NCBI GenBank assembly: GCA_973895155.1
Contig: OZ316895.1
Span: forward strand, 13,441,186 to 13,505,185
From: Marsupella aquatica
Taxonomy: Eukaryota; Plantae; Marchantiophyta
DNA length: 64,000 nt
Direction of reading: 5' to 3'
Shown: positions 10,494 to 50,900 of the stretch, piece after piece
Position numbering within the stretch: the first letter of the stretch is position 1
How the letters are laid out: the number at the start of each line of letters is the position of its first letter
Notes under the pieces: model-generated
The model's database searches: none
Seen by the model: only the letters and a program-made list of their open reading frames with translations
Told to the model about the DNA's origin: nothing
Made by a program: the position numbers and the translations under genes

Positions 10494-11069
10494 AACACAG
10501 TGACGGACCAAACGAGAAGTATGACCACCAAACGAGAAGTGTGTTTTCGATTTCATGAAAAACGGCGAAAAATCACTAAAATTAAGATCAAAAAGGCTAT
10601 TTTGAGGATGAATCCAAAATCGCATCCAACATCGGATTTCAAATCGAGATACTGTCGATGCAAAAACACAGAATTGTCACAATCCAGAATTCCGATACAC
10701 TTCATCTAAAAAAAGTGCAAATTCCAAAACCTAGAAAAACAATGCTTTTCACGTGATCCTTCTAAAAGCTAAATCCGAGCGTCAAACAAAATGAGTAAAA
10801 CACAAGATTTCATTTTCGCCATCAAAATGGCAAACTGAAAATGGGATACGACGTATCCCATTTTGGATTCAACTATTGAACATGGACGAAAACCACACCA
10901 AATCATTCTCCTAACGCTTTCATTTAACCTCGGGTTAAAAATGTTTGAATTTTTGACTGCGGTTAAATTGAAAACTGCGAAAAACTGACCGCGGACTACA
11001 GTCGAACCACACAGTTAGTTAAGTTAACCCGACGACATGTCCGGAAACTTTTTAGCCCTTAACGCATGA

Positions 11070-12500
11070 TGAATACGAGATGGGATCCAAGTATCCACTA
11101 TCGTATTCAACCTCAATGTTTTCCACTTGCAACTTTGCATCAGGAGATCTTTCGACATGAATACCAACTGAGATCCATGGATCCCATTTTTTTTGCAAGT
11201 CCAAAAACTGATTGGGAAAACAGGAGGATGAATACCACATGGGATGGATCCCATCTAGTATTCAACCTCTACATTTTGAAGCATTTGCATCGCATACCTT
11301 GATATTCCAGTTTGAAGACCAACTGGGATCCACGGCGACTTCCTCAAAAATCTACAATTTAAATTTCAGCATTCTTTGAAAAGACAGACTCTCACGTGAA
11401 AAAACCCTCGTACGGACCAATCAGGGAATGCCACGTGTCCAATGCCCCCAAAAACTATAAAAGGAAGAGCTCGCATCTGTTTTTCATCTTCATTTCTCGC
11501 GATTACTTTGAGGTTCATTCAGTATTGAGTAGTTGTTTTCATAGAATACTGTAATCTGAATTTTCTCTGTTGGATACGAATACGTACTCCTATAGAACCC
11601 TTGTTTGATTCTCTATGGCGTCTTCAAGTGATGAGTCAATTTACAGTTCAGATGCATCTTCACCAGATGTTGTTCGAAAATTTATTCCATCTCGTTTGAT
11701 GAATGAATTACCAGCCTCACAGAGAGTAGTGCCAGAGATTTCATTTTCCTCAGAATCTGAAAAATCAGAGTCTGATTCAGAGTCTTGTAGGAGTGTTGTG
11801 GGTGCTCCAATTTCATACTATGTCTCTCCAAGTAAACCTCTTAAACGACGTCTACTTGTAAAGAAGCCTAATGTAGTTCCTACAACAGAGACACTTGGTT
11901 CACCGCGAACCCAGACAGATCTTCAAAGGCGAAGGCCCCGGTTTTTAATACCAAAAACAACGTTACCATGTAGGCCCGCCCGAAGATCTCCGTTGGTTTT
12001 TCCAATGTCTCGTTCTCCGGGAGCGAAGATAGCTGTGTCCAGTGTTCAATCACAGTTTGAGCGAATGAGGAGTCCAAATGTGCAGGAATTGCAGAGAGGG
12101 GCAGCCTCGGAGCCAAATTTGGTGGGTCGAATACCAAGTGGGATCCGTGGATCCCACTTGGTATTCCCTACTCAAATGTTGAGAAACGGTGAACGCAAAT
12201 TACCTATTTTGTCTCCTTCAGTACCAAATTCCTTGGGTCAAATACGAAGTGGGATCCATGGATCCCACTTAGTATTCCCTCGTGTTATTTTGCAGAATCC
12301 TGTGCCCGAGTCACCGGTCTTACGGATTTCCAACCCGAGTTCTGATGGTGGAATGCGAAATAGGATACGCGGATCCCAGTTCGTATTGCGCAACGGAAAA
12401 TTACCAAGTCATGACGCAGAATAGCAAGTGGGAAAGTTTTCACTTTGAAGTCCCAAAGGACGAATACGAGTTGGGATCCATGGATCCCAATCGGTATTCC
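11070..12500. repeat. Dispersed S1 palindromes, GGATCC variant
   Basis: Perfect 18-bp-arm palindrome GAATACCAAGTGGGATCC-GT-GGATCCCACTTGGTATTC at 12129-12166. Relatives at ~11071, 11158, 11229, 12241, 12354 and 12462. Confidence 0.85.
11417..11462 (+). promoter_or_regulatory. Putative Pol II promoter of the S1 transposase
   Basis: CCAAT (11417), CACGTG G-box (11432), CCAAT (11439) and TATAAAA (11456), ~155 bp upstream of the ATG at 11615. Confidence 0.55.
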
Positions 12501-15463
12501 CATCAGTTATTTCACAGAGTGGTAAAATTAACAACATGGGACTTTGGAGCCCTTTGGCGAGGATGCAGTGTGAGGTTTTTGGATCTTCCATTGGACGGCA
12601 AGCGCAGAACGAAAGAGGGAAGAGATCTAGTGTCCAAAAAATTCCTTGGAGATTATTGCGAAGTGAGCTGCCGGAGAGAGGGCCCAAAAATTCAAGGGTA
12701 CATGCTAAATTGAAACTTGTCCAAAGATTATTCAATGGTCAAGATGAGCCCTCAAGTCGAGAAGAATCACCTAGGCTGGGATTACAGTCTCAGAGACAAG
12801 TGGGCGGTACTCCGACTGAAGATGTGAATATCATTAGAATATTTCAAACTAGAAATCTCCGAACACCTATTACATTTTCAGAAGACTCTGAAGAGAGATC
12901 AGAGGAGGCTGCAAATGACAGAGAGACTGCTGTAATCTCAAATGTTGTTGAAGAGATCCTGGGAGGTGAGATTGTTCATGAAACAGTTACAGAAAATGTG
13001 GAGAGTGGAAACAACTCTACAGAAAATCTTTTTGTTTTAAATTCTAATTCACTAGAAAATAGTGGGGGGTAAGTTCTCCCGACACTATTCAAGATAGAGT
13101 AGAGGTGACAAGACCCAGCAAGAAAATCAGAGATCAGATGATTAGAAAAGATAGACTTACCATTGCAAATCTAAAAAAAACACAAAATTAAAGATATTTT
13201 TAAGTATCCCTGTTGTGACAAGTTTTGCTTGAGGTCTCTGGGTCTAGAGGAATGCTCAAAACAACGCAAGTATTATTTTGGTCTTAAACACTTGCAAAAA
13301 AATATTTTGCTACGAGGTTGTATCATGAACAACTGTAGTACTTCTCGTGGATATAGTGTAAATGGACAACCTATATGTAGAGGAGGATTCAAGAAACTAT
13401 ATTCTTTAGGTAATAATAGATTGGCAACAATCCATGCAAACATGTTTACAAGGATTGAACGAGATACCTTTTGTAAGGAAGACTCACCTTCATTTCTAAA
13501 CTTGGTGGAATGGTTGAAAGATTTTTTCCAAAAAAATATGGATAGTCTTCCCCATAAAGAGATTCATCACTTGCCAGACAATTGGACAAAGCAAGAGATA
13601 CATGGAATCTTTGAAGCTGAAACAATGTTGCGAGAAGAACAACAAGTTACATATTCTTATTTTTGCGTGTTTGGAAAAAAAAGTTTCCAAATGTACGAAT
13701 TCCTAAAAGGAGCCGATTTTCTACTTGTGGTCCTTGTACTGAATTCAAGGCTCTTCGGGACAAAGCAACAACTGAAGAGGATAAAAGTAAGTTCCACTAA
13801 CTATAACCTTCAACTTTAATTTGATGACATGTAATTCAATATTTATCAAAGTTTATCCTTAGTTATTGATTTTTAATTCATTGCTATTGTATCATTTCAG
13901 GAAAGTATATCAATGCCCTTGTGGAGCATCAAAAAGTACAATCATTGGAAATGATGAAGTTAGCCAAGCATCGTAAAAAATGCTATGATGAGCCCAACAA
14001 GTATTTGGGTATTTGTATAGATGGTATGGATCAAAAGAAAACAGAGCTACCACATTTTCTTCGTTGTCCAAAGAACATGGATGAAAAGTATTTTATTCCA
14101 ATACATGTTGTAGGTTGTCTCATCTTCAACAGGAACCTTGTAGCAAAAGTATTTTTGACATATCCCAATATCCATAATGATGCAAACTTGACCATACATG
14201 TTATTCAAAATGTATTGAATACATGGGATGGGACATTACCAAGAGTGTTATATCTTCAATTAGATAATACCACTCGGGAAAACAAAAATAAATTCTTGAT
14301 GGCTTATTAAAGTGGGTTTCTTGTTGGTCGGTCATACACATGACCAGATAGATCAGATGTTTAGTAAATTTTCGTCTAGGTTAAACAAGCACAAAGCATT
14401 TCGCTTGGAGACTCTTGAGGATATTATTCGACGAGCATATTCACCTGAAGCTTTGATCATATTTGTGGATGAAGTAGCCGATTTTTGAAAATTTGTCAAT
14501 GAAAACGACCAGCCAAATGAGAAGGGAGTCTCAGGTAGAGTCTTGAGAGATCTCAATCTCATAACTTTTCAAAGACAATTCAGATTCAAACGAGTCATGG
14601 AGGATGGAAACAAAGAGACAAAATTTCATGGGAAACATCCTTCCACGACCCAGGATTGGGGAGATGCAATGACGTTCGTCAATTACATTCCAACCACAAG
14701 AATGTGGGTTGTTGCACAAATATCACTGAAGTCAGCAAAAGGTGTTGAGAGGGATGATGTCCATGATTCTTCCAATACTGATGGTGCATTAACTACTCTG
14801 GTGAAATATGAAAAAGCTATCCAGGAAGGTTTCAATTACTTTGACAATGAAGATAAACTTTGGTGGATGAGTTTTTTTGAGAAACAAAAAGATATTATCA
14901 AAAACCACCTAGAGGAAGGTGAGTGGTTATTTGAGTGGGTTTGGCCGCAACAAAATCAAGGTGCACAACTACTTCCAAGGGTGAGAAATGAACTTGTTGA
15001 AGAAGGTGTTGATCCAACTTTGGTTGACAAAGTTGCTGGACCACAGAGAATTATGTACTCCGGACCTCGACGAAAGCAAGTTGAATTTGGAGATTTCAGA
15101 GATATGGAAGTTAACAATAAGTGGTCCATGATATGTGTAGCGGCACACAAGGATCCAGAAGGCAAGTTGTTTTGGATGGCAAAGGTGTCAAAGATTTTGA
15201 CAAGAACTGCAGACATTCCTGAGAGAATCAAAATCACATGGTACACAACTGAGGCAAGTGCTGAGTCTGCTATTGATGGGAAATATTTTCCAGAGAAAGA
15301 TAATATATCTAATCGACTTCTCCAAGATGAACTAGTTCTATCATCAACAGCGGTGTATGCATACAACTTTGCGCTTTTAAGTACTAATCAAATAGCAGCA
15401 AAAACTAAAAAAATTATAGAGTCTACTATATTAGAGAGAGGTTCTGCACACTCAGAGGATTGA
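11615..15463 (+). pseudogene. S1 transposase (Sola1-like DDE family), disrupted
   Basis: Motifs ICIDGMDQ, LYLQLDNTTRENKN and FLLVGHTHDQIDQMFS, with upstream Cys clusters. Intron 13787-13900. Has frameshifts, a small deletion near 14310 and stops. Homologous to 35065-38808. Confidence 0.85.
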
Positions 15464-15474
15464 GATTGATGTCC

Positions 15475-16419
15475 TTAAACAGGTACATGGATCAATTTTA
15501 GAATTTGATCTCGAATGAATTTTTTAAGGTTACATGCTCTTTTACAATTGTACCATTTTTCAGTAAATAAAGACTGTGCATCAAGGCATTGTGTAATATG
15601 CCATTGAATTCTGATTTTGTCCATATTTTGAAGAACAAATAGACCACAATCTGAATTGTTTGGTTGTTGAGGTACGTGAGAAAGAATCTTAAAGTTAGTC
15701 CAAAGTGTTTAATAATTGAACTAAATAAAAGTTGAAATAACTTTTCAAATCCTTACCATTGGATTGTATATCTCCACAACTCCCATTGGAACTTTTCCAA
15801 AAAATAATTCCCATTCCATTGTAAAATATCTGCAAATTATCATTCAAAGTTCTTAGTCCAAAGTGTTGATATTTATGTACCACATAAATAAATTCAAATT
15901 GAAAAAATGTAATAGAATATATACGTACCTGCTTAGTATTGATCCAATTACATGGGTTGAGTGTAGACCGGCGAGAGAGTCTAGATGATACATTTTGATC
16001 GAAGATTCAATCCGATCCAAACATATTACAACCAGACTCCAGTGCATGCTCATGTGAATTGGCATGAGAATGACCTCAATTTGGGAAAATGGTGGCTTGT
16101 AATAATTCTGCATCTTTTGAATTGATTCCAACAAGGTCTCGGCTGGTTCTGTTTCAATCCTTGAAACAAGCCAAGGGTAAAAAAAAGAGGATAATGTGTT
16201 TACTGAGGGAGCCAGATCTCCATGTTCCCCGGTTATTAATTGTGGGTAAAATTCCATTATTTCATCACCCAAATATTGACCGGGTTCAAGTTGGCTCAAT
16301 GTTTTATTGTCCAAAAGAAATCCACTAGAAGGATTGTGTGAGAATCTATGCCGAACATGTTTCAATACAAAATCCTCCTTTGGTTCCTGCAAAGACATTA
16401 CTTTGTGAAATAAGAACAT
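15475..16419 (-). CDS. Ulp1-family (C48) SUMO/ubiquitin-like protease carried by S1, three exons
   Basis: YLGDEIMEFY, SSFFY, PIHMSMHWSL (His) and HLDSL (Asp) in 15929-16419. Short exon ~15757-15829. Last exon has VPQQPNNSDCGLFV (Gln/Cys) at ~15635-15676 and a stop at 15475-15477. Confidence 0.85.
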
Positions 16420-16498
16420 AGTCCAATCATAATCTTCCTCAATATTTCACAAGTTTGGATCAATAGATACAACATGAGAGAACTAATCAAACTTAAGT

Positions 16499-19400
16499 CT
16501 ACACCTCAAGGAATGAGCCAAGATCAAGTGTCGGAGCTTCATGTTCCACTTCATCCTCTTCATCCTCATCATTGTCGTTCTCCTCCGCGGTTGTAATAAT
16601 GCAAGTTCCAGTGGTGAGGGTGCTCGTAGTACCACCAATAGGTGGTTGAACCTCAAAGCTCATGGGTCCTGTACCCGCCTCGGTTGCTTCATCATTCAAG
16701 TCCCATGATTCATCAAGCGTGACAAGTCGGGTCCGGATACAATCCCCCTGGCTTGCACTGAGCTCCACGGCTATCACCGGACGTTTCCCTAACAAGGCAG
16801 CGCATGAGGTCAAACCACTCCCCGCACATAAATTAGCAACCCAATCCCCTACTTCACTAAAATGTTGAACGAACCAATCTGCTAAAGCTATCAGTTTCTG
16901 GTAAGGGTTCACTATTTCTCCCAATGGTGTTACATATTTCTTTGTAACACAAGGGACTTTTATGATGTTTATCCTTTTCTCATCATGTTCAAAATTGTAC
17001 ATGTCTCTGGTCCTCATACCACTCTCGTGATAATATCCGATTGACCAGTTTTCAAAAGCCCAAGCCAATCGATTCCCGGAAGGATGAGCATGTACATTTG
17101 GCTTCTCCCAAATTCCAGCCTCTACACCTGCGTTACAAGTTTTTCCAAGAGCATTCATCACAGACCAAGTTTGCTGCAAAGAGTGAATCACAACAAATCT
17201 CCACATCTTTGAACTTGTCACCTTGGCAAAACAATTCACCATATCCACAATATCACTCTCTGAAAATGGGACCTCATCATTTTCAGAGCCAGGCGCATTG
17301 AATCCATAAGGAATGTCTGCAATTGCAAGTGTGTAATTCCTTTTCTCTACAAACTTATCCAGCGCCCTGACATCTCCACAATGCAATGTATATCTGATAA
17401 AATTTCCGTCAGCGTTTTTCCATCGATGGTCACTCGACTCTGCTTCAACCGTTTCAATCCCACGACGACGGTTGTAGTTCTCAATCGCTTCTTGAACGTA
17501 ATTCTTAAACCCCGGGGGAATAACACTCGAAGTCAGCTCCTCCGTAGGCTTCTCAACCGCATTGGCACCAATTGCATCTTTGTTCTTCTTCTTCGAAAAA
17601 GCTTTCAACTGCAAACGCAAACTTGTTAAAAGAATCTGGAGGAAAGACAATGGGGAGATAACCATTTAGGAATTCAAACAATCAAATCTGGATGACGAAT
17701 GCGACATGGGATACTCCGTATCCTAATTTGTATTCAACCAAGCAAAAACCACTGTCAAACATCACCACTGTCAAATAACCACAAGTGAATCCGAGATGGG
17801 ATACCCCGTATCCCACTTCACATTCGACCAAGCAAAAACCACATTGAAACATCTCAAATGTCAAATAACCACATTGAATACGAGATGGGATACCGCATAT
17901 CCCACTTCGAATTCAACTAAGCAAAAACCACATTGAAACATCACAAACTTCAAATAACCATAAGTGAATCCGAGATGGGATACCGCGTATCCCACTTGGC
18001 ATTCAACCAAGAAAAAACCGCATTGAAACATCAACAACATCAAATAAGCACAAGTGAATCCGAGATGGGATACCCCGTATCCCACTTCGCATTCCAACAA
18101 GAAATCCATGAAGAAAACCTCCAAACATGGCGAAACAAATAGAAAAGTCCAATCAGTGGAAGGGGAGAACATACCACATCGGAAAATTTCCCACTCCATC
18201 TTTCAAGCTCGGCAGATTCTGTTTCTTTTGGAAACATTCGTTTGCAAGTCACCCAGTCTTTCTGCCCTGACAACTGAACAAAAAGCTTGCTAATTTTCAC
18301 AAGTTTCTTGTAACTCTCGACTTCTTTTGCCATCTGCTCCAAAGAGATCATCCGGTCCTTCACTCGGAGAAGAAGGGACTCCAAAAATTGGTCATGTTCA
18401 ATTCCCTGGATTGCTCTCCAAGGTGTCAAGGTAAGACCCCCTGCAAGCTTATTCAAAGCTTTTGGAATCGACTGCGCTTTTCCCTTTCCTTTCTTGAGTT
18501 TCTTGATAGGTGACTTCTGCATATTCTGCCCTTTGATCTCCAACTTGTTCCACATCTCAAAGATCTGGTCTTGGAGTTCCCAGACCTTACCCGACCTAAA
18601 CACAATTTGGAAGAGAGGCTCATGCTTCTTCAGGCTTGTGGCGTCCCCCGGAAAAAACCCGTCGAGGCAAACCTCCATCGCACACGCTTCTCTAGTCTCC
18701 TTGGTTTTTGCCATTCCTCTGGCAAGGAAAATCTTATGCATTGTTCGGATTTGATCAATGTTGTTCATTTTTTTCCTGTACTCCTGATCAATATTATGTT
18801 GGATGCTAAGTTTCTGAATGTCCTCCCTTGTGAGACCAGCATACACCCAAGCTTGGAGTTCATTGAAGATCTCTCTCCCATAAGCCTGATACAATTCTCT
18901 CTTGGCCTGAGCACCGTGATTACCTCCAATCACTCGATATTTCCAGCTTGTTGCCTTTTCTGGGTCCGAGTCTATCACTGTCGGGCAGTCTTCCGGGATC
19001 ACAAACAAGACAAATGGCGTCGTGAAATTTGTCGGATTTATTTTCATCAAAGTCTTGATGTTCTCCACATGCAACCGATCGACTGTTCGAACCAACATTG
19101 AGTTCTCGTCGTCAATATCGTCAAGAAGAAGGAGGTTAGTTGTTTTCAGAATAACTGTTGTCTTCTGAACTCGCTTAGTCTCCATCAACCGAGACACTTC
19201 TTCACGAACCACAAGTGTCTCTTCCCGCTGCAAAGCTGTGGTGATATCTGTTGAATCGTTTTTCTTTTCTTTAACAGCTCCTCTAGATGATAAAGAAAGC
19301 CCACCTGACGAAGTTGAAGGAATCTGAGGTGTCTGTGAAATTGGTGGGACCAAAGATGAGACAACACTTCCTGGTGCAAAAGGTGCGCGCTTCTGGATGT

Positions 19401-20133
19401 CACGTCGATCCAATTTGTTCTTGACAATAGCTTCTCCTGACACCGCTACTTTAGAACCTTCCCCAGAGAGTTGATCTGCAAGCTTCCTCTTTGCCGGTTC
19501 CTTAAGAGAAACTGTGGCAGATTTCTCCTTTGTCGAGGGTGTTCCAGACATCTCCCCTGACTTCAAAGCCGGATCGGTAGGCTTCGTCACTTTCAACTTC
19601 AAAGGCCGCTCTTTGACGCCAAAGTCAGCTCCAACAACTGACCTATACGCTACCTTCGTAAAATCCTCAACAACCCTCCAAGACTTCAAGACAAATTTCA
19701 AACACCAATAAGAAAAGTCCTCAATCTCCGGCACTTCCGAAATTAGCTGGCAGATTGGGTCATCAGGAAATGTGTTCATCAAGACCCGATCAAGTTTCTC
19801 GTAGTTGAGGACAACTACAATGAAGGCATTGTTCGGAAGAATGCAAAGGTACATTGGAATCTTCTTCAGCTGTTTTGTTTTTGAGTCGGTGATATCCGCC
19901 TCCCCGGTGTCCACGACTAATCCATAATGGCAATGGTCTTTACCCTTAACGATAACCAACCACACCACTGGACCTTCATAGGCTCTGTGAATATCCATCG
20001 CCCGAGCATCCCTGAAGTACCACCTATTCCTCATGAGTTTCTCCTCCGTGTAAAGGTCTTTCTTCCAAATCTCATCGACGATGGATGTCCGTGAAGACTG
20101 GGTCGAACCAGACGACTTTGATTTGTTCGACAT
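16499..20133 (-). CDS. ParB-like domain fused to a beta-class DNA amino-methyltransferase (N6A/N4C fold), ~1030 aa, two coding exons
   Basis: Exon 20133-18175 has VRTVDRLHVENIK...YRVIGGNHGAQA. Phase-0 GT-AG intron 18174-17636. Exon 17635-16499 has LHCGD, motif IV ADIPY, WEKP, motif X NPYQK, motif I NLCAGSGLT and VIAVEL, in beta-class order. No stops. Confidence 0.85.
17697..18095. repeat. Five ~90-bp units, each with the palindrome GAAT.CGAGATGGGATAC-NNN-GTATCCCA...ATTC, filling the ParB-MTase intron
   Basis: Units start at 17697, 17787, 17876, 17966 and 18056. Confidence 0.92.
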
Positions 20134-20234
20134 GATCCTGAAAAAGATTGACACACTTAGAACCAGACCAAACCACTTGGCATCCAACATCAACAATTGC
20201 CAAGTCTGATGCAAAGAACGAACAAGAGGGAGTT

Positions 20235-20613
20235 GAATGCGAAATGGGATACGCGGTATCCCAGTTCATATTCAAAGTCAAGAAAGAGCGAGGAGGTTCG
20301 GATGGAAGACTAAAAAGAGGGTGTTCAATGCGAGATGGGATACGCGGTATCCCATCTCGTATTCAATATTGAAAAGAAGGCCAAATAATAGAGTTGAATA
20401 CAAATGGGGATACGGCGTATCCCTCTCAGGATTCAACAATTAACCAAACGAGGAGGGGAGAGTTTCTTCAGGTTTTACCAATTTTTTGGTTTCGATTCGA
20501 GCAAATACGAAAAGCTATAGAGATGTTGCGGCCCGAGAAAAATGCGGAGGTAAACAAAGTTGATAAGAAAAAGAAATGAGAGTAATTTTTCTGACCAGGC
20601 ACTCCTATTTATA
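20235..20613 (-). promoter_or_regulatory. 5' region of the ParB-MTase gene: three palindromes in a putative 5'-UTR intron, plus a TATA box
   Basis: Palindromes at ~20235, 20326 and 20395. Splice acceptor TTTTCAG at 20138, just before the ATG. TATAAATA at 20613-20606. Confidence 0.55.
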
Positions 20614-20967
20614 CTTTATCACCTTCGTATCCACAGGCGATAAGGTCTCCACAGGCGATAATGTGTATCCAAAAGCGTAGGGTTGGAGTCCGGATGTCTA
20701 TGTATATTTTTTTCTCTTGATGGGACTAGAGATAAGGCATATCCCCAAGTCCTTGTATTCAACCAAATAGATTTTACGCGTAGCGAATTGGGTAACTCTT
20801 TATTCATTCAGAATTGTGCCACAAAAAAAACTAAGTTGATATTCTTAAAAAGAGTCTTTACAAAGAGCCCATTCAAGATGGCTCTAAACCAGACTAGAAG
20901 CTTTCCCATACATTTCCAAGAGCCTCGCTTGCTCATCTTTCTTAAGATTGTGCCAGTCTTCTTGAAA

Positions 20968-21435: not shown

Positions 21436-21611
21436 TCCAAAATAAGAGTGGATACCTGGAGTAATAAATGAGATGGTGAGCTCTTTCTCAGCAACCTACA
21501 AAATAGTGATGGAAAAACTGATTTTATTTCTTTGATCAAAATAAAAATATATTCACAAAATGTTTGACCCAAGAACGTTCACCTAAACACTTACACACTA
21601 ATCAAGAAAAT

Positions 21612-21947: not shown

Positions 21948-22129
21948 AAGAGAAAACTTCGTTTTTCAAGGAAAGCTTAAGCTTGAGTGGGTGTCGGTCA
22001 CTGAAAGGCAGCAAGAGCTTCAGTGCGTACAGTTCAGTTGAACTTCGCCTGTGAAACAATCAGTAATCCATAAGGTTTTTCCCATCATTCAAATAAACTC
22101 TAGGTAAATACCACATGGGCAATCAAAAC

Positions 22130-34458: not shown

Positions 34459-34494
34459 ATCAGCCTATTCATTAAAAGTGTATTATTATTTGAT

Positions 34495-39066: not shown

Positions 39067-42000
39067 TGTGGTGCGTCCCATGGCTCCCTAAACCCAAGAA
39101 ACCCCCCAGCTCAAGCCGATTCCCGCAGGTTTCGCGCTTGGCGAGGCCATTTCCGCGGCTTAGCGGCATGGGACGCTGCTAACCTTCTACTACTACTATT
39201 AACATTTTACACACATATACTAGACAGATCCTTCATCGGGTCATGAGATACGTAGTCGGCCTAATCTAGGCCTTCCCTTGTCTTCCCCTCTGTCTTGTTA
39301 GGTATGTTTGGATTCCGCCGCCGGAATGATCCCCAATAGGCTTGGTTAAGCCGCTAAGACCTCTCTCAGCTCGACACATTCAACTCTCACTCCCCTACTT
39401 ACTTTCCTTCCTACTGTTAGTTGATGTGGGCACTCTTCACACAAGTTAATGCGACACACAAATAGCAAAATGACTCCTTCTGACTGAGTCATACCATGCA
39501 CTTGTCATACAAACAGTACATCTCATACACAAGCTCTACGAACTAAGCCGTGAGGCCAACTCTATTCAGCTCTTAGGCATGAGGAAACATGAATATACAC
39601 AAGGGTCACTGTATGACTAACCAAGAGCTTCCCTTACTACTTGATCCCAGCCCGGCTGGTGCAAACTAAAAACTTGCTAAAGAAGAGGCCCTGAGCTCCC
39701 CGCTGCCCAGGTACTTATCTTGGTAGTGGATCCGCCTAATTCTTTGCAGCGTAAGCCTAATCTACCTAACAGTAATCTACTTGCCCGGATCTACCTATGT
39801 ACAGCAAGGCAGGAGCACAAGTGTTGCTCCTACCAGTGGAACCGCAATCCCACTAAGCTAAGTGTCAGGGCCGCTCCTGGTCCTGATCCTAATCCTAAAC
39901 TTGGAGATCAGCGCCCGCCCTGCCCACTCATGCCTCCTCCCTCCACGTCCGCCCTTCCTAAAAGGAATGGCGCCCTTGCACCGTCACGACACCGGTGGTG
40001 GATCCTCAATGGACGCCCCCAATGCTTCCTCCTCAGCCACTGCCGTAGGTTCGTTTTCTGATAGATTACCTGCCCTTGACTGAGTCAACTCTCCATCGGC
40101 CTGACTAGGTCCACCATCGGCGTCGGCATTGGCTCGGGAATCATTATCGGCTACGGCCTCAGCCTCGGCTACGGTCTCCCCGGCCTGCTCAAGAGGCGGA
40201 TCTGGGATACCGGCCTCATGATTGAGTAGTTCGGCTTGGGCCACACCCTCCCCACCCTTGGTGATAGCAGGATCTATTGCCGTTCGGCTTGGGGTCCCCT
40301 CGTGCTACCCTTGGAAGTGTGGGGACAAACCGGCCACAGGTCCTTACTCCTGGAACGTGATGGTCCGACCCATAGCCGGAGTTATCATGGCTGAAGTCCT
40401 CCACTGCCTCCTCTACTTCTTGGACGTCCGGCTTCTCCCTCTCCTCTTCGTCGGTAGGAGCTTCAGGCAATTCTACCTCAGATTCAGAGCTTGAGACTCC
40501 CACATACATTCGAACTCCTGGCTTTGATTCCGGCCTGATTCTCTCCTTGTCTCCAGCAAAGGGGTTTTCTTTTGTAAGCCGGTGTAAGCCTACCTCTGGA
40601 GTAGTGTCCTGCATGGTTGTCGTTGCCGTTGCCGATGCCAATCTCTTCTCTTTCTCCAGTAGTTTCAGCAGACTCTACATGCCTGGTTGCTGCATCGGCA
40701 AGTCCTCCTTCCTTGGTCTAAACACCTGCTCGATCGTAGGGCTAACATGTGGTTGAGGCTTCTCTGCTACCGGCCTCGGTGCTAGAGCTTCCTCGGGTGC
40801 TCTTACCTGCAGGGGAAGTACTGGGGCAAAAGTCTGACCTCTGGCATACCGGCACAACAGCGGCATGTGATAGCCAAGCCGCGACACGCTCCCCATGCCG
40901 ATTACCTGCTGCTCCTCCTTTAAGATCTTCTTCAATTGGTTGAGGAGGTACCCGTTGTAGTCCCGGCTTGGGTCTGGCCTCTCTGCCAGATAGACCTGTG
41001 CCTTGCCAATCTCTGCCCTCGGCAAGTTACAATGCATGGTCACCCTCAAGAAGTCGATCATCTCTCCTATGTGCGGGTTGGTGCAGGTGTTCCGGAAGAA
41101 GCCATTCTTCGTTGATGGCCCGGGGAACGACCGGAACTCCTTGTCAGGCAAGGTCTTCCTGGTATCAACTTTGGTCTTATTGCCTATCGGCAAGCCAAAC
41201 ACTTCGACAATCACTTTGGGAGTAAGATAGAAATCCTTCCCATATATCCTCGTGCAATTGGTCTCGGGTTCCCATGACCCCACGAATTCTAATAGGTCTG
41301 AATCCGGTACTTCCGGCTTCAGCCATGGTAATCTTACAAAGGCCTCTAAGCCGGATCCGGCCATGAAGCCTTGGTACTTCTTGGTCTGCATGGCCGTAAA
41401 GCATGCATCCTCCTCCCGTGCAAAATGTAGTTGCACCTCCACTGGTAGGGTTGCCGCCCAGCCCTTCCAGGTGTCATCCCTGGTTGGAATGGCCTTGATG
41501 GGATCAACCTCTTCCTCTTCGGCTTCTCCCTCCCTCCTGCTCTGCTGCTCGGCTGGCTTCTTTGGTGCCGCCGACCTCGTTCTTTTTGCCGGGGTGGCTT
41601 CATCGTTGACGGCTCCCTTCCTCTTCATCTCTGCTGCCGTGGAGGTTTCTCCTAGCACCATTGCCTGGGTCCACCTTTCCGTGCTACCCTTCAATTCCCA
41701 GTGTATGTCATTGCAGTTCTTGATGGCCTCTTGGATGCCGACGACGTTGTCTTTGCAAAACAGAAGATCGTCGAGCTGATTGGAAGTAGGAGTCCACAAG
41801 AACTCGTCCTTGATGAGTTCGCCTCCTAAGAAAGTCATCTTCTGCAGCTCCCACAATCGAGCGAGCTCCTGCCGTTCTCGAGCTGCCCTTTCTGATTCCT
41901 CGTCCTCGTAAGTCTTGATGTACTTAGTTGCCCGTTCGAACAGGCATCCCCAGAAATGTGCCGCTTGATTGACGTTGCTCATACCCTCCTTAGGTCGATC

Positions 42001-42358
42001 GTCAGTATCTATTCTCTCCCCGAGTGCTTGCCTAAGCAGCTGACAGTAGTTGGCCTCCCGTAGTCGTCTGCCTAGTTCGTGCTCACAAATGAGCCACCAT
42101 CTCCTGCAAGCGCTCCTTACCCCTCTCCTCTTCCGGTCCTTCCTCCCGTTGATCCTTCCTAGCCACCGACGCTTAGCGCGCCCTAACCCTAATCGAGTTT
42201 TCACCCCCAGCGTCCTTACCTCCGGCCTCGGCCCGGGTTCCATAGTCGCCCCTAATTGTTTATATTTTCCTTGTTTTGTCCCTATACGAAGGTATTTCCA
42301 GGGTGCATTCTTGCTTTACCCACTTCACTGGCCGAGTGATTCCTGGCTAGGCATCACA
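39067..42358 (-). mobile_element. Solo LTR of gypsy family B with a ~1.38-kb internal deletion
   Basis: TG...CA ends and 5-bp TSD TAGAT (39062-39066 and 42359-42363). Inverted copy of 27277-31945 lacking ~29350-30730. Confidence 0.95.
39984..42243 (-). pseudogene. LTR B ORF retained in the solo LTR (coiled coil deleted, premature stop)
   Basis: ORFs 40675-42243, 40216-40641 and 39984-40244 are nearly identical to 27392-31024. Confidence 0.88.
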
Positions 42359-44326
42359 TAGATGATCCATATAAACGGCGGACAGGGATCATCCCTATCC
42401 AAAATCCGGACAGGGATGATCCCTGTCAGAACGGCGGATAGGGTCTGTCACTGTCCAAACGGCAAACAGAGATCATCCCTGCCTAAGCGGCGGATAGTGT
42501 CTGTCATTGTCCAAAGGGCGGACACAGCTGATCCCTGTCCAAATGGCGGATAGGGTTTATCACTGTCCAAACAATAGACATGGATGATTCAAGGTCCGGA
42601 TCACTTAGGATCACTCAGCGATCCTATCAAGTAAAACCTTTTATATTGGGGTCCCATAAAGCAAATACCTCAAACGGTGGAGAGGGATCATCCCTATCCA
42701 AATGGCGAACAGGGATCATCCCTATCCAAATGGCAGAGAGGGATCATCCCTATCCAAATGGCGGACAGGGATCATCCCCATCCAAATGGTGGACAGAGAT
42801 CATCTATATCCAAACGGTGGACAGGGATCATCTCTATCCAAAAGGTGGACAGGGATCATCCCCATCCAAACGTTGGACAGAGATCATCTCTGCCAAAATG
42901 ACGGATAGTGTCTATCACGGCGGACAGGGATCATCCCTATCCAAATGGCGGACAAGGATCATCCTGATCCAAATGGTGGACAGGGATCATCCCCATCCAA
43001 AGGGTGGACAGGGATCATCCCTATCCAAAATCCGGACATGGATCATCCCCATCAAAATGGTGGACAGGGATCACCTCTATCCAAACGGTGGACAGACATC
43101 ATTCTTATCAAAAATCCGGACAGGGATCATCCCTATCCAAAATCCGGACTGGGATCATCCCCATCCAAACGGTGGACAGGGATCATCTCTATCCAAACTG
43201 TGGACAGACATCATTCTTATCCAAAATCCGAACAGGGATCATCCCTATCCAAACGGTGGACAGGGATCATCCCCATCCAAACGGTGGACAGGGATCATCC
43301 CTATCCAAAAGCCGGATAGGGATCATCCCCATCCAAATGGTGGACAGGGATCATCTCTATCCAAACGGTGGACAGACATCATTCTTATCCAAACAGCACA
43401 TAGGGATGATCCCTATCCAAACAACTAATAGGGATGACCCTTGTACGGACAGTTAACCTGTACACACTAATTTAATGTTTGACCAAAGAAAGGTTGGATT
43501 GAGATGATCCCAATTGTGAGTTGGGCTGGATACCCCAACCTTAAGTAACTTAGATAATTATACAATTCCTAAATTTGATACCAATGGAATATTTTGTAAT
43601 TAAGTTGAAAGTTACCTGTAATGGAAATGATTCTTGAACACAAAACTCACTTAGTTTATGTTGTCAAACCAAGTAATAAAATACTTTGTTGAAGGGGTAG
43701 TTATCAGTAAGCTGGTAAACTAAATGCTTCAGGGGTGTGGAAGAAATTAAAACTAGATGTTCTGTCTAGAAAACAAGAGTGGCTCAATGGGGCTCCGTAA
43801 TGAACGGACCTGGTTGAGAGACTGAATGAAAATCTAGAAATGAAAATACCAAATGAGGACCAGCCGGACCAGCCCAAGTATCTTATACCATTTGTTCAAG
43901 ATCGCTCTTCCGGATAAGGCGATGCGTGATCAGCCTTAAGCAGCGGCGGAGTTTAGGGTTGAGTGGATGAGGTTAGGGTTTGCCTCGCACGGCTGTCTTG
44001 CCTCGCCTCGCACACCGGCCTCCCATGTGTCGTGCCTCGCCTCGCACCTCGGCCTCACCTTGGAGGGGGGGTAAAGGAGGCAAGAGGTCCCACTTGGGCC
44101 TCATTCTTCTTCCCTCCTCCTCTTCTTTGCTCCTCCGCTTCTGCGCCTCCGCTCCTCCGCTCTTGCGCTCCTCCGCTCCTCCGCCTCATTCGCTTCCAGT
44201 CTCCCTAGGCCCCACTCCACCTCCGCCTTCACACTAGAGTTTCTGCCCTAGCCACCACGTTACTTGCCCGGCCTAGATCTAACGCTCTGTGATCCTCCAC
44301 GTGTCCATACGGCCACGTGTAACAAT

Positions 44327-47300
44327 ATGGATCCATCTAGACCTATTCATGTATCTTTGGTCGTTGAGCCAACAGAGGAGATAGACCTCTCCTCCATTGA
44401 GGATGTGATAGACACGGCCCTCGAGGATTCCAGAGCCTTCCAATTGCTCAATCCAAGTGAGTATCTTGGTAACAAGTTGAATATTTGTGCAGTGGACAGA
44501 GACCATCTCTGTCCAATTGGATAGAGATGATCCCTGTCCAAGTAGAGTCCAAGTAGAATATAGTGATCTTTATTAGGAATTGGATAGAGATGATCTCTAT
44601 CCAAACTGAGGATAGAGATGATCCCTGTCCAATTGGATATGGATCATCTATTATTTTCCAAAATGACGATAGAGGATGTCCAACCAGAGGATCAAAACTG
44701 TCAGATTAGAGGATGCTGAGGATCTTTATTTGGAATTGGATAGAGATGATCCCTATCCAATTCCTAATAAAGATTATCAGTATCCTCTGATCGAATAGAG
44801 ATGATCTTAATTAGGAATTGGACAGACATCATCCCTATCCAAGTAGAGGATAGAGATCATCCCTGTCCAATTGGATAGGGATCATCTCTGTCCAAACTGT
44901 GAGAGAACCTCATCTTTGTCAATTACAAAATTAAGATTTTTCCAAACTAATATGCATGGATGGGACTATTGCAGGGAGCGATCTAAATGGATTGAAACCA
45001 GCAATTTCAGAATCAGATTGCTCCGAGGGAGTCTTGTTGGAGCAGAGCAAACAAGATTTTCGTTGGGGCCTTGAGTTCTCTCGAGTTGATTTCGATTTCC
45101 TTAGCACATCAGAGAGACGGGATCCCATTTTGTGCATAAAGGTTAGAACAGGAGATCAAGAGACTCTTGTACTCGGACCTGTAGTCTTCATTGGAATTGA
45201 AGGAAGAGGGTTTGTTTCTGTCATTCTTGAGCTCCATGAAAGGATGCGATGGGTTAAGCTACATCTACCATCAAAGGCGTATTCTTCAGAGTTCAATGTT
45301 GAATGGTCTGCTGCTGGAGAACTTGGCGTGTTAGCAATGGGCTTTTTCCCTAAGTCGTATTCAACTCAAAAGGTGATTGCTGGAGTGAAGGGGATTCTTC
45401 CACTCGACATCATGTATGGGTTTCAATATGTGAAGCTGAATATCCATAAACACCAAGGGAATTGTACATTTCCAGTGACATGGATTTTAAATAATTTGCT
45501 CGACAAGGCAGGATTCCTATCTTCGGAATCAGGTGTTTTCCTTGAGAAGAAAATTGCATTTGCAAAGGAGTTTGCGATGGATAATGCAAAAAAGTGGGTA
45601 GAATCATTACCCAAGCCTACAAATGTTGCACCAGTAGCGGTGAACGAGCTTCCAGTAGTTGCTAACAAAGAAGTTCCCAAACCTAGAAAAATTTCTCAGG
45701 AGACAACAACAGGGACTGCAGGAACAACGGCTGGGACAAGCACCAAACAAGTGGTTGGGAAGCAAAGACTAAGAGAGAGGAAGGAGCGCGAGAAAATTGA
45801 GACATTGCCAAAGGAACCCGCGAAGAAGCCAGTAGCGAAGAAACAGAAAACTAACAAGTTTGTTGTGCAGTCAACCCCTACGGACGTACAAATGCTCCCA
45901 GAAGATGAGGGAGACAAACTTGACGCCCCTGAGGAGAAGAAGGTCTTAGAAGGAAATGATGTTCTCCAGAGAATAGAGCAATACTATACTTTTGGGATAA
46001 ATGAACTGTTTTCTATTCCTGTGGAGAAAATTATGCCTGCACCTACAAGATTATGTTACAGGATGCTCAGTAGTACCCATGTGAAGCACATAGCTGAATC
46101 CATGGTCAAAAATCCTGGACATGAACCTCACGTCGCGGACCTACTTCCTTACAGTCCAAAGCTTAGAAAGTTGCTCCATTTTGACAGCACGGAGAACGAC
46201 CGCAAAGACTTTCTTGCAGGAGTGAAGAAAGGCGAGATTGGTTTCTTTGCTATCAGTGGGCAACATTCGGCTAGGGCGGCCAAGTGGGTTCTTGAATGGG
46301 TTAAAACTGATGCCAAGCTGACAGTGTTGGCAAAAAAGTTAAAATACAGGAAGTCTAGATTATTGTCAGACCTTACACCATCGGCTGTATTGGTTGAGCA
46401 CTCAATGAGATCAAATGCCATCAATTCGACGATGGTGTTTCAATCTTGCTTCAAAGATACAATTGTTCATGCAAGGAAACAATTCCTTGAATGCGGAGCA
46501 CCAAGAAAGCCAAAGCACGGGGACAACAAGTCAAACGCCCAAGAGAGTCAAAAATTTCAGGTGAGAACTATTTTTCTTGTTTGGACAGAAATGGTCTCTG
46601 TCCAAGAGTGTGACCGTCCGTTACATTGATTTTAGTTCAATATGTTTTTGGTTATGCCTTGGATGGAGATGGTCTCTGTCCAAGAGTGTGATCGTCCATT
46701 CCAGAGATTTCTCTTCCTTTTACTTTTGGTTATGACTTGGATGGAGATGGTCTCTGTCCAACAAGCAAGTGATAGTTTGTTGTCAAATCTCATTGATTGT
46801 AGATAACTTATTTTCCCCTAATTTTTTACTGTAGGATTATTTGGCATTGGCAAGGATGACCATGGGGAGAAAAGACTTGAAAAATGTATATTGGTTGCTT
46901 TTTGCCGAGAATGATCTTTTCGAGCTCTGGCGGTTAGTGTGCCAGATGTGGATTGATGGACATCTTCCTGATGGAGCTGGTACACAGGGAAATAAAAGGT
47001 CCAAAAAGGGTATAACGGTCGCAATGTTTTGTTGTTTTGATGGTGAAATTTCAAATAGAGATTTGACCAGAATTTTGAACAAGGTGAAGTCAGGTCAAGT
47101 TTTATTGAAGAAGGATCCGACAAATAAGTCAGATGTTCCAACAATGGAGGACTTTGCAAAGGAGGTGAAGATATTGATCAAACTGAAGTCTCTTATTGGA
47201 GATTACTACTTCAAGAAGGATCCAAAAAACTTCCCAGCAGATAGTGATTGGGGTAAAGTAATTGAGGTCCTCCCATTGTTAGGTGCCGAGTCGGAGTTGA

Positions 47301-48694
47301 ACAGGTGCCGAAGAGCGGCTGGTGAAGTATGGTTGACAAATTTATTGAAGTCTAATCATACAAAGGAGAGTGAGATATTGCCAATGACATTGGTGATGCG
47401 TCTAGATGATATTTACTGTTAGAAGTTTGGCGGTGGGACAAGTTCTCGGACTCAGCCATGGGTCACATTTTTTAGTAACAATCTAATGAAGACAGTGGAT
47501 CCGGAGTCGTTGGAAGAACAATCTCCAACATGCCCCCTTGCGATTGTTGATTTCAGCCGACTTCAACAGAAGGAGTGGACTGAAGCAGAGATTTTGGTCA
47601 TCTTCCAATATATAGTAGAGCTACCACGGAATCCCACCATTGTTGTGATGATAACTGTCCATCCAGGTTATCTTGTACTGAATGTCCTAAGCGCTCTTCG
47701 TAAATTAGGACATTCAAAAACTTTAAGCATTCACATTGAGTATGGGAGTTATTCTCGAGATGATCAACCTCACCCTCATGACTCATGTTGGAAGGGAGGA
47801 ATAGAAGAAGTTATCTTTGCGGGAATTTCTCACGAAGAGAACGTCAGCTGGGATGAAGTGTTCAAGCCCAACCAGATGAAGCCAAAATGGGTGTACGGTG
47901 AAAAGGATACTGATTTCGTGGTTGAGAAGGTCAAGGGAAAGGGAAAGGCAAAGGACGCGGATGAGGAGTCATTGCATGAAGATCTAAGAAATATGATGAC
48001 CCAAAAAGAGGCGGCAATACTTCTGCACATGGCACCTCGATTTGAGACTGTCGGCGCTCGGGGTGGGTGGGTGAATCCTCACGCCAAACCCACACGGATG
48101 ATCCAAAAGATCATCCAAACACTGTCTGAGCCGGGGGATTTTATTCTTGACTTTTTCTCTGGCGGTCAAGTGATGAAGGCATCCCTTTTTTCTCAACGTG
48201 AATGTTTTGTTTATTGTGACTCTCAACATGAGAGACATTTTGTGGAAGCATACGCTTCGTTCCTTTGTGAGAAGGTTCCCACCATCAAAGATCGTTATGA
48301 TCGCTATGTCGGTGGAAGTTCTAGACATTGGGAACCCTCTTCTGCCGCTGTTGCTATTGAGGATGAATCAGATGGTGATCAAGAAGATGGAGCTGACCAA
48401 TCAGTCAAAGACGATGGGCCATCGGAGGGGGCATACGTGAAGAATTTGGATGACCGAGTTGGCGAGGGTGAAAATATTGACCTTGTGGAAGACGATATGA
48501 TTGTTGGATCTGCACCTTGCAGTTCACCAATTACAGATGTTGCCCCCATGGGCCCCAACGAGGGCCAGTATGATGATAACTTGGATAGAGATGGTCTCCA
48601 TCCACAAGTGCCTGGACAAGAGATGGAAGTTGATACTTTTGAAAAACTTTCTTCAAACAACCTTCTCAATCAAAGGTGCGGAGAGGCATGGTGA
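44327..48694 (+). pseudogene. S2 ParB-like plus degenerate beta-class DNA methyltransferase fusion gene
   Basis: Exons 44327-44456, 44975-46560 and 46835-48694 with phase-compatible GT-AG introns. ParB-like YRMLSSTHVKHIAESM...FAISGQHSARA. MTase motifs X and I: VNPHAKP...SEPGDFILDFFSGG. Motif IV is degenerate (AIVDFS). One in-frame TAG at 47420. Confidence 0.75.
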
Positions 48695-49202
48695 GTCCAA
48701 TGAACTCGACACATTGGGATTGAGACCACAACCCATCCAAATAGCTTACATTCCCGTGAATGAAGCAAGTGCATCCACGACTGCTGACAACCAGGCAGGT
48801 GCTTCAATTTGTCCCAATACACTCTTTTTCGCTTCTGATGACAAATTGGTGTTTGTTCGATCACAATCAAGAAGTCCCGTTATCCTTCCACTCTCAAAAA
48901 AGAAAGGGAAGAGAGTAGGATCAACTAGATATAAGTCACTTGAATATGATTGTTACGTGTGGAAAAGTGGACCCAATGTAGGAACTGAAGTTGCGTTGGA
49001 TGCTGCTCAATCAATTTTGAACAATGACTCATACAAAAAGCACAAGAAAGATCCAACTTATAGAAGTGGAGAATTGGGATTGATAACTCCGGTTTGGTCT
49101 GCACCTTATTGGGTAGAGGAGAGTACCTCTGATGTCAATTATGAGATCCAACAAGAACTCGGTGATGATATCTTGATTGATGAATATGGATCGCATTGTT
49201 AG
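48501..49202 (+). CDS. Probable frameshifted continuation of the S2 cargo gene; unknown function
   Basis: 233-aa frame overlapping the end of the MTase ORF. Confidence 0.4.
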   Translation: MLDLHLAVHQLQMLPPWAPTRASMMITWIEMVSIHKCLDKRWKLILLKNFLQTTFSIKGAERHGESNELDTLGLRPQPIQIAYIPVNEASASTTADNQAGASICPNTLFFASDDKLVFVRSQSRSPVILPLSKKKGKRVGSTRYKSLEYDCYVWKSGPNVGTEVALDAAQSILNNDSYKKHKKDPTYRSGELGLITPVWSAPYWVEESTSDVNYEIQQELGDDILIDEYGSHC

Positions 49203-49454
49203 CCAAGGTCTAGATTGAGCGATGTGACCTTATCAATTTGATATAATATAGTCTGTATAATTATACTTCAAGTTTAACAATTAGAGCATCAGTATCAATA
49301 TCCATCTCCTCTTTACGGTTTCTCAATGAATCTGATCAGTATGGCGATATATTTTCTTTGTGGTTGGCCACTTGTGTTGGATTGACAGAGATGATCTCTA
49401 TCCAAACTTCAAATGTGGTTTTATCTCTAAGATTGGTATTTGTTGCACTTGCAG

Positions 49455-50491
49455 AACCAAGACCTTGTTCCATCAAGCGCAAATTGCTGATTTTGGATCT
49501 TAACAAAATACTTTGGGATTCAGTTGAATTCCAAAGCAAGGGCAAATCCAGAAATGTTGTGATCCCAAGTGGAGTGCATTGGGATAGAAAAAATGGAATT
49601 AGTCGCATGTACACAGAAAGGCCAGGGCTCCATGAGTTTCTAAAGTTGGTTTTTGACCGATTTGACGTTGCAATTTGGACATGTGCTGGGGTACATCGAA
49701 CAGTGAAAATGCTGAACATGATGTTCACTGCTGAGGAGCGGTTGAAACTTAAGTTTGTATTCACACAAGTGGAAGCCTTTGACACAGGCATCCAAAGGCG
49801 TGACATTACAAACGGAAAGGCAAATGTGCTACTGAAGGATTTTTGGGTGGTATGGAGTGGATTTGGAAATCTATATGATGAAACCAACACCCTCCTTGTG
49901 GATGACTCCCCCCTTAAGGCATTTGCCAACCCAAGCATGACCGGACTATTTCTAGTGCCCTACATGCATGCCAATGGTGGAGATAATTTTCTTCTAACAA
50001 TTCTTTGGCCTTGTCTTGAGAAACTATCCCATGCAAGTGACATTAGATGTTATCTTCTTCTTAACTCTCCACTGTGGTCTCTATTGCACATAAAGAGAGA
50101 CAAGGTAAAAAATGAAATTACTTATGATCAACTTAGTAAGAGATGCGCAACAAAAATTTGGAAGTCACAGTTTACGCATAGTGTGTTGGACCTCAATAGC
50201 AATGAGATTCCTTGGAACGTGAAGCATCGTATATGTAGTTTACGTCTTGAGGCAGAACTTGACGATGCACTTGTCACGTCACTTGCTAAAGCATTTGTAG
50301 GAAGGGACTATTCAGGTCCGCATAGAGAAAATCCCAGACACTTTTTGCGGGAGATTATAGCCATTAGGAACAACACCACCAAGTTTCAGCTCCGTGAAGA
50401 TAAAGGGACTTGCAACCGTGACACTAGGGTAGATAGTAAAGGAGACAGGGGCACGTGCTCAAATACACATTGTAAGGAGCACTTTGTTTAG
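49455..50491 (+). CDS. FCP1/NIF-type HAD phosphatase-like protein carried by S2
   Basis: KRKLLILDLN, RPGLHEFL...FDVAIWT, LLKD and NTLLVDDSPLKA..NP. Splice acceptor TTGCAG at 49454. The DxDxT motif is non-canonical (DLNKI). Confidence 0.82.
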
Positions 50492-50900
50492 AGATATGAC
50501 TCATGTTAAGCCCCTTAGATAGAAGAAATACATTGTAAATTTGGAGATAATTGTATATTATTTTATAATCTATTTGGAGTTATGTCATTTTGTTCACACA
50601 TATTCAAGGGTTTATTTGTGCTAAAATGTTTTTATAAGTATGATCTCTATCCTACTATTCTTTGTGAATTCATAAATAATGATCTATATCCTATTATTCT
50701 TTGTGAATCAATAAATGATATAATATGTATTATTTATTAATATAATACTTATATGATTTGGCCTATAAAGTGTACATTTAGAGACCAAAAAGTGTACATT
50801 TGGGTTTCTTAAAGTGTACATTTGGGGACATGAAAGTGTACATTTCAAGACTGATTTGTGAACAAAAGAAAATACACTTTTAATGAATAGGCTGATGCAT

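Follow-up and report, generated by a model that had tools for sequence, protein, structure and literature searches.

Two giant Sola1-like transposons of the liverwort Marsupella aquatica carry a ParB-methyltransferase-type gene and family-specific palindromes to which its product may bind

Why would a plant DNA transposon carry a gene that pairs a ParB-like domain with a methyltransferase, and repeat a palindrome of its own many times through its non-coding DNA? The question is raised by a 64,000-nucleotide stretch of the liverwort Marsupella aquatica (contig OZ316895.1, positions 13,441,186 to 13,505,185 of the forward strand, assembly GCA_973895155.1; hereafter the window, whose first letter is position 1), which holds two large elements, S1 and S2, each with a transposase, a spliced gene of this kind (the helper) and its own palindrome. 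A transposon-borne ParB-methyltransferase that would act on its own element is a reasonable reading and fits the evidence. At slightly better than even confidence, we propose that the helper likely binds the palindrome of its own element via ParB, likely brings chromatin-modifying domains to it, and would thereby prevent silencing of the family. The system as such is not new, as a ParB-methyltransferase transposon, inverted-repeat arrays and the idea of self-modification all appeared in print in 2025.

Both elements are real DUF7869 (Sola1-like) DNA transposons with terminal inverted repeats (TIRs) and 4-bp target-site duplications (TSDs), and both are natively about 12.5-13 kb long. Their limits, their transposases and an insertion nested in S2 are as follows.

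10494..23046, no strand: element S1, 12,553 bp, TSD TGAG, defined by TIR, TSD and the empty-site joint
10494..10528, plus strand: left TIR of S1, 35 bp, with 2 mismatches to the right TIR at 23012-23046
11609..15463, plus strand: DUF7869 transposase region of S1 (Pfam E 2e-18), with an uncertain 5' limit, broken in this copy
34459..50896, no strand: element S2, 16,438 bp, TSD GCAT, sitting in a Gypsy integrase
34459..34760, no strand: left TIR (26 bp) and subterminal repeats of S2, defined by end and repeat analysis
35065..38853, minus strand: DUF7869 transposase of S2, an open frame of 1,262 codons (Pfam E 3e-43)
39067..42358, minus strand: nested insertion in S2 of the long terminal repeat (LTR) type, with TG...CA ends and a 5-bp duplication (TAGAT), not part of the module

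As the sequence-only reading of this DNA had claimed, the TIRs of the two elements are unrelated in sequence and each element has its 4-bp TSD. The S2 TIR matches perfectly between the two ends, and blastn of S1 against S2 returned a single 21-bp match (E 0.17) and no other DNA similarity. The reading frames flanking each element join in frame across the insertion point, the frame split by S2 being that of the Gypsy integrase, and the empty site of S1 (joint 10489 to 23047) was found in contigs of three of the four public runs compared, which represent two studies and one of which may be the window's own source. All 30 bins of S1, helper included, were covered by divergent contigs in all four runs, with more than 1,200 variant positions. 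S1 is accordingly a family of many copies, and the helper gene belongs to it. As for S2, about 3.3 kb of it is the nested LTR-type insertion, an inverted, internally deleted copy of the segment at 27277-31945, which leaves a native element of about 13.1 kb.

The transposases carry the motifs IHDKMD or IDGMDQ, LQ[LM]DN..NKN and VGHTH; together with the DUF7869 matches, these bear out the DDE transposases of the earlier reading. Relative to other copies, the S1 transposase has frameshifts near 13063, 13173 and 13659 and has lost 36 nt at 14307. That of S2 has 41 homologs, the named plant ones being from Riccia sorocarpa (39-51% identity). We take DUF7869 to correspond to the Sola1 transposase, an assumed correspondence for which 'Sola1-like' is the safe label. 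A preference for AWWT targets has been called a hallmark of Sola1 elements (PMC3845634), and neither TGAG nor GCAT fits it, two sites being too few to measure a preference; in the passages available to us, Sola1-1_Ec32 of Ectocarpus is curated with a target bias other than AWWT (PMC12477816).

Each element carries a palindrome that is its own, and the sites are distributed as follows.

10842..22883, no strand: 21 S1 palindromes, 15 of the form TGGGATAC-N3-GTATCCCA and 6 of the form TGGGATCC-N2-GGATCCCA
42378..43420, no strand: 28-bp tandem array with 27 S2 palindromes, between the divergent transposase and helper genes
44492..44895, no strand: eight S2 palindromes (TTGGAYAGRGATSATCYCTRTCCAA) at the helper promoter

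When the window was scanned, all 21 S1 palindromes fell inside S1 and all 42 of the 25-bp S2 palindromes, which differ from those of S1, fell inside S2, while ten shuffles of the window gave 0-2 sites per pattern; the element-specific, many-copy palindromes of the earlier reading thus stand. The patterns were derived from the sites themselves, so the conservation of their cores is partly built in. Outside the search pattern, three of the four positions of an outer GAAT...ATTC arm are paired in 13-14 of the 15 S1 copies of the first form, which makes the S1 site a bipartite one of about 41 bp. In S1, three copies lie near the left end, four in the 5' region of the transposase, five in helper intron 1, three at the helper promoter and six near the right end; the S2 copies not listed above comprise three in the helper intron (46581-46761) and four elsewhere in the element. 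In both elements, then, palindromes accumulate around the promoter of the helper and within its intron, and most copies are found in promoters, introns or intergenic DNA. The ends themselves carry short repeats different from the internal palindromes: in S1 a terminal 10-bp word that occurs twice at each end, and in S2 subterminal 22-bp repeats with a TGTACA core, which recur at 50771-50842. These end repeats are the likely, predicted site of the transposase and, as the ends keep this separate repeat, the internal palindromes would be left for another protein.

The candidate for that protein in S1 is encoded on the strand opposite the transposase, starting at 20133, in a tail-to-tail layout.

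18175..20133, minus strand: S1 helper exon 1, an N-terminal region without assigned function, a ParB/Srx domain (GGNH) and a helical domain
17609..18174, minus strand: S1 helper intron 1, 566 nt, GT-AG, with five palindromes at about 90-bp spacing
16505..17608, minus strand: S1 helper exon 2, a beta-class amino-methyltransferase with DIPY, then NPYQK, then the CAGSG S-adenosylmethionine (SAM) motif
16386-15929, 15829-15757 and 15687-15475, minus strand: exons of a Ulp1/C48 SUMO protease (Pfam E 5e-12), with the His-Asp-Cys triad present

The sequence-only reading had described a spliced gene for a ParB-like domain and a beta-class methyltransferase, and here it held up well: besides the GT-AG intron, the homolog P0001 runs continuously across the junction of exons 1 and 2, and structure and profile matches support both domains. 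An AlphaFold2 model of the ParB region built from an 18-sequence alignment reached a predicted local distance difference test score (pLDDT) of 83, against only 34 when the region was folded from its single sequence. The Foldseek search that the earlier reading had suggested matched the N-terminal model best to Noc (E 1.6e-5), then to ParB (3e-5), and also to KorB, over about 280 columns. By VIA, the matches to PadC, SerK, KorB and sulfiredoxin span Z 9.8 to 8.2, PadC scoring Z 9.8 with a root-mean-square deviation (rmsd) of 2.9 over 99 residues, and KorB scoring Z 9.0 with an rmsd of 11.8 over 147 residues. As modelled, then, the S1 helper has a ParB/Srx fold. Plain sequence searches fared differently: the Pfam search matched ParB in neither helper, a profile search against PDB sequences had no ParB among the best 60 of 70 matches, and a word-index search with the S1 ParB region returned one homolog.

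A side observation concerns the same domain. In the ESM Atlas, the nearest named cluster to the stretch at 18631-19230 (residues 1-200 of the searched part) was DUF3723 (score 0.94, 171 shared features), ahead of ParB_N. Since DUF3723 is a conserved cargo of Starships, these fungal elements may carry a related ParB-fold protein for self-recognition, which we offer as a lead only.

For the methyltransferase exon, we found 239 relatives at E up to 0.001; the organisms named among the 30 that were looked up are Chara braunii, Riccia sorocarpa, Adiantum nelumboides and Ginkgo biloba. At the protein level, at which these relatives were compared, several hold a ParB region in the same protein. The order of motifs in the alignment, with catalytic motif IV before SAM motif I, is that of the beta class, and PF01555 matched 29 of 39 family members. 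While a single-sequence phmmer search with the S1 methyltransferase against the PDB gave nothing significant, a family profile, which included the S2 row, matched the N6-methyladenine (6mA) enzymes DpnA (2e-20), CcrM (6e-17), M.RsrI (9e-17) and M.MboIIA (2e-13) far better than the entries labelled N4-methylcytosine (4mC), 8s9m (3e-6) and PvuII (5e-5). Among the 150 homologs listed, [DNS]xP[YFW], mostly as DIPY, is kept in 73 of the 100 that cover motif IV, none of which has SPPY, and the SAM motif in 69 of the 89 that cover motif I. The QKL of this S1 copy is the canonical QKP in other S1 copies. Given the D-x-P-Y form, the lack of SPPY and the far better scores against 6mA enzymes, adenine methylation is the likelier activity of S1. 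The canonical catalytic motif of the beta class is DPPY, so activity of the isoleucine form, DIPY, in S1 is an assumption.

The Ulp1 domain begins about 110 bases past the methyltransferase stop. A five-exon model with four GT-AG introns (566, 118, 99 and 69 nt, the last three being 69-77% AT) gives a stop-free protein of 1,267 amino acids in the order ParB, methyltransferase, Ulp1; in this model the methyltransferase is probably spliced in frame, through the 118-nt intron, into an intact Ulp1 SUMO protease, a predicted fusion. None of the 30 longer homologs scanned had a C48 domain, many of them being partial or called on unspliced DNA.

Two observations on the relatives stand apart. P0047 (CBR_g41648 of Chara braunii) has two tandem ParB-methyltransferase units in one annotated protein, possibly two merged gene copies. 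The Riccia helper homologs R1sor_020633 and R1sor_020851 adjoin none of the named transposase tags, both lists being small samples.

The second element presents a far more diverged version, likewise on the strand opposite its transposase.

44956..48694, plus strand: S2 helper gene, a ParB-like region (SGQH), a GT-AG intron at 46561-46834 and a methyltransferase-like region
49247..50491, plus strand: NIF (CTD-type) phosphatase-like open reading frame (ORF), after the helper (Pfam E 5e-15)

Of the ParB-methyltransferase gene that the earlier reading saw in S2, the intron and the methyltransferase fold stand. The methyltransferase region was found at E 1e-12 by a profile built without S2, and the two helpers align with each other only at the C-terminal motifs (E 0.02). 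The ParB assignment is weaker, with an hhalign probability of 58% (E 1e-4; rank 5 of 1,001 against shuffles). A search with this region, among longer proteins only, found no homolog, a negative of little weight. At 47420-47422 an in-frame stop codon interrupts the gene, the SAM motif survives in a shortened form (FFSGGQ), and the catalytic motif is gone. From its sequence, the S2 methyltransferase is a dead fold, and only S1, of the two helpers, can be an active methylase. The claim of one common architecture likewise holds in part: both elements combine a DUF7869 transposase with a helper gene, a palindrome of their own and protein-modifying cargo (Ulp1/C48 in S1, the NIF phosphatase in S2, both by Pfam), whereas their layouts differ, being tail-to-tail in S1 and head-to-head, with divergent genes, in S2.

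The earlier reading knew of no description of this combination; two publications of 2025 do describe it, and we know both from the passages available to us. Sola1-1_Ec32 of Ectocarpus is a 21.5-kb element with a 1,104-amino-acid ParB-like and N4/N6-methyltransferase gene opposite its transposase, for which self-binding and self-modification were proposed (PMC12477816). It resembles the Marsupella elements in being a giant Sola1 element with a 4-bp TSD and a ParB-methyltransferase of about 1,100 amino acids opposite the transposase, and its termini begin with AAC, as do those of S1 (PMC12477816). It differs in being brown-algal and, as far as a comparison by description goes, its main text has no 'palindrom' and the passages at hand mention no protease domain (PMC12477816). 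The Plavaka elements of the red alga Bostrychia carry a PF01555 methylase and ParB genes that adjoin tandem arrays of inverted repeats (bioRxiv 10.1101/2025.02.11.637652), and PAG2 and PAG3 are in these respects like S1 and S2. The preprint makes the self-modification hypothesis, draws the comparison with VANDAL and states that no other transposon is known to act in this way (10.1101/2025.02.11.637652). Unlike S1 and S2, these elements have an EnSpm/Plavaka transposase, and their ParB-2OG oxygenase and methylase-SET are separate genes (10.1101/2025.02.11.637652), whereas ParB and methylase form one gene here, in S1 probably together with Ulp1.

The likeness to VANDAL of Arabidopsis, for which we claim no homology, lies in family-specific motifs in introns, intergenic and terminal non-coding DNA, often in tandem (PMC5735166, in the parts available); S1 and S2 share this trait, as their motifs are enriched in their non-coding parts. 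VANC21 binds the promoters, introns and intergenic DNA of VANDAL21 and counters silencing (PMC5735166); that our palindromes lie in like places speaks for our proposal. VANDAL, however, belongs to the Mutator superfamily, and the effect of VANC was demonstrated, whereas that proposed here is inferred (PMC5735166). A ParB-like anti-silencer is also described in bacteria, namely VirB (PMC10653881, consulted in part).

Compared with bacterial proteins, the modelled N-terminal domain of S1 has the fold of ParB, Noc and KorB (PDB 7bnk, 7ng0 and 8qa9), and the methyltransferase resembles the beta-class 6mA enzymes in profile and motif order. Unlike these counterparts, both helpers have introns and lack the arginine of the CTP motif, and neither S1 nor S2 showed a partner nuclease or a ParA. 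Among eukaryotic proteins, Marchantia DN4MT1, which has TSPPY and makes 4mC (bioRxiv 10.1101/2021.02.12.428880), and rotifer N4CMT (PMC8885841) are, according to the parts of these sources available, likewise beta-class amino-methyltransferases of bacterial type. The closer link to them that the sequence-only reading drew finds no support, as our family has D-x-P-Y, not TSPPY, and its match to DpnA surpasses that to the 4mC-labelled 8s9m by about 14 orders of magnitude. ParB-linked adenine methylases have been described in chlorophytes and phages, with few such enzymes in land plants (Iyer et al. 2016, PMC4738411, in the passages at hand). The literature search turned up no land-plant description and no ParB-methylase-Ulp1 fusion; Repbase, Iyer et al. 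2011 and the Bostrychia supplements lay outside that search and may cover plants.

How might such a helper work? Noc, ParB and KorB bind palindromes as dimers. By analogy, a ParB dimer would load at the two-fold palindrome and spread, and the modifying domains would be brought to the promoters and introns of the element, countering silencing. For S1, local 6mA would be the most likely product of the DIPY methyltransferase, and the spliced-on Ulp1 domain would strip SUMO from silencing factors. In S2, the methyltransferase being a dead fold, the effect would come from binding by itself, perhaps together with the NIF phosphatase. Since the protein and its site diverge in step, the action of each family would be confined to its own copies, like that of VANC on VANDAL. 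Folds, motifs and the placement of the sites are what the analysis shows; that the helper binds, methylates and de-SUMOylates, and which way its effect runs, is what we infer. In favour of this account, most homologs keep the catalytic and SAM motifs, other S1 copies have QKP, the pairing of ParB with a methyltransferase has also been published for algae, and at two related loci (L050 and L075) a transposase of this kind has a ParB-helper-like or methyltransferase gene as its neighbour.

Several observations weigh against it. The canonical CTP-binding motif of ParB is GxxR, and its arginine is missing: S1 has GGNHG, S2 has SGQHS and most homologs have GGxH[GSTC], so CTP-gated sliding of the S1 helper is not established. 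The S2 methyltransferase, in this copy, has DFSR at the catalytic position. No contig among those compared spans S1 end to end, so the helper is presumed in other full-length copies. Further points come from related transposase loci in metagenomes, of which we took the best 80 of 517. The earlier reading had suggested looking for transposase and ParB-methyltransferase together, and a helper-like gene occurs at only two of the 80 (L050 and L075), in a search that is insensitive to S2-type genes, as the helper profile misses S2's own ParB domain, and in a set where many loci are short, decayed or redundant. A palindrome in at least three copies occurs at eight of the 64 loci of at least 4 kb (three of the eight being one and the same element); no helper could be detected at any of these eight, and the loci that do have a helper-like gene hold only one and two palindrome copies. 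At one locus, L018, no helper was detected although the 11.3-kb element is complete, with TIRs at its ends and a palindrome array inside. The coupling of palindrome and helper is therefore not proven by co-occurrence. The palindromes of the eight loci are each the locus' own and unrelated to those of S1 or S2, and since related loci carry their own repeated palindromes, family-specific palindromes are a wider trait of these transposons.

As to the individual loci, L050 has a match to the helical region (E 2e-12), tail-to-tail with a related transposase. In L075 (2360-9466), the gene immediately upstream of a DUF7869 transposase encodes a beta-class methylase-SET protein, and an 18-bp palindrome occurs twice in the space between the two genes; the methylase-SET pair is the domain pair of red-algal PAG2 on a different transposase. 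A ParB domain suspected in L075 from the word DGGHR found no support (hhalign 0.3%). The element at 1214-12494 of L018, also seen in L012 and L013, has 36-bp TIRs, a 24-bp tandem array of the palindrome ATYTRGTGGCCACYARAT, an S2-like layout, two NIF-phosphatase remnants and a decayed transposase, and words related to its palindrome recur in other loci of the set. Two further DUF7869 elements have promoter-side palindromes, one of 32 bp at about 75-bp spacing (L004, 8525-9470) and one of 18 bp in six or more copies (L002, 500-1600). Viral contigs held no transposase relative, only one unrelated multi-methylase locus. At 24 bacterial loci, tblastn matched at the C-terminal motifs only, with no ParB within 3 kb, so no bacterial donor can be named.

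The most specific form of the proposal is that a single ParB-methyltransferase-SUMO-protease would load on its own 41-bp bipartite palindrome, write 6mA and strip SUMO, as a sequence-programmed, catalytically active self-protection inherited from phages and plasmids, spread across streptophytes between Chara and Ginkgo, with a target that would shift as ParB and site co-evolve; this we put forward tentatively, as possible but doubtful. The helper might instead bind the palindromes for a mechanical or repressive purpose, as a KorB-like long-range repressor of the transposase or a clamp joining ends 12-13 kb apart, methylation being dispensable. KorB is indeed among the top structural matches of the S1 model, S2 retains its arrays despite its dead methyltransferase, and palindromes are concentrated at the two promoters and, in S1, also towards the two ends. 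We nevertheless consider such a role unlikely, as most S1-type homologs keep both catalytic motifs, the domains attached across lineages (methylase, SET, 2OG oxygenase, SUMO protease) are chromatin modifiers, and S2 has almost no sites near its ends.

Less likely still, though worth weighing, is that the transposase or a host factor binds the internal palindromes and that the ParB-methyltransferase acts elsewhere or without sequence specificity. Palindrome arrays in related elements without a detectable helper (L002, L004, L018, L034 and L080) would fit this, as would a 2026 preprint, available in part, in which a Mutator transposase is reported to activate cognate copies sequence-specifically (10.64898/2026.08.24.746577). 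The element ends, however, carry a different repeat, and in both elements the sites crowd into the promoter and the intron of the helper itself; moreover, L002, L004 and L080 are cut short, and the decayed L018 could be served in trans. That the helper was captured as neutral cargo, and that tandem duplication produced the palindromes as a by-product, strikes us as very improbable: many palindromes do lie in 28-bp or 90-bp tandem units and both window copies are damaged, but dispersed copies with unrelated flanks retain the palindrome, the arrangement is common to two helpers so divergent that only their C-terminal motifs align, and the pairing recurs in brown and red algae.

The rest of the window adds the following. 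Within S1, one further feature was noted.

20968..21965, minus strand: two short S1 ORFs of 175 and 117 codons, without a Pfam match

Outside the elements, the 4.7-kb segment at 27277-31945 follows a Gypsy pol and a purine-rich tract, starts with TG and ends with CA, and behaves like an LTR despite holding long ORFs (495 and 732 codons). Repeats with an 8-bp period (AAACCCGT-like) lie in the Gypsy-related flanks at 5110-5178, 33515-33630, 56543-56657 and 59162-59246; long minus-strand ORFs without a Pfam match lie downstream of the Gypsy integrase regions (32034-33611 and 5387-6526); and a 290-bp tandem duplication (99% identical) lies within a Gypsy integrase region at 25786-26365.

To the algal work this locus adds three things: it places the module in a plant and points to relatives in Chara, Riccia, Adiantum and Ginkgo, it defines two candidate sites precisely, and it leads to the prediction of a fusion with a protease. 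The algal papers proposed self-binding and self-modification by a ParB accessory protein, and the passages at hand report no test of it (PMC12477816; 10.1101/2025.02.11.637652). The window offers a plant test case, a multi-copy family whose helper has kept its catalytic motifs, and its two unrelated, exactly defined candidate sites can serve as controls for each other, while the predicted SUMO-protease tail points to a specific silencing pathway. If the helper does act as we propose, plants would have a second, unrelated anti-silencing system, which might then also account for local 6mA in their DNA and would offer a compact chromatin tool with site specificity.

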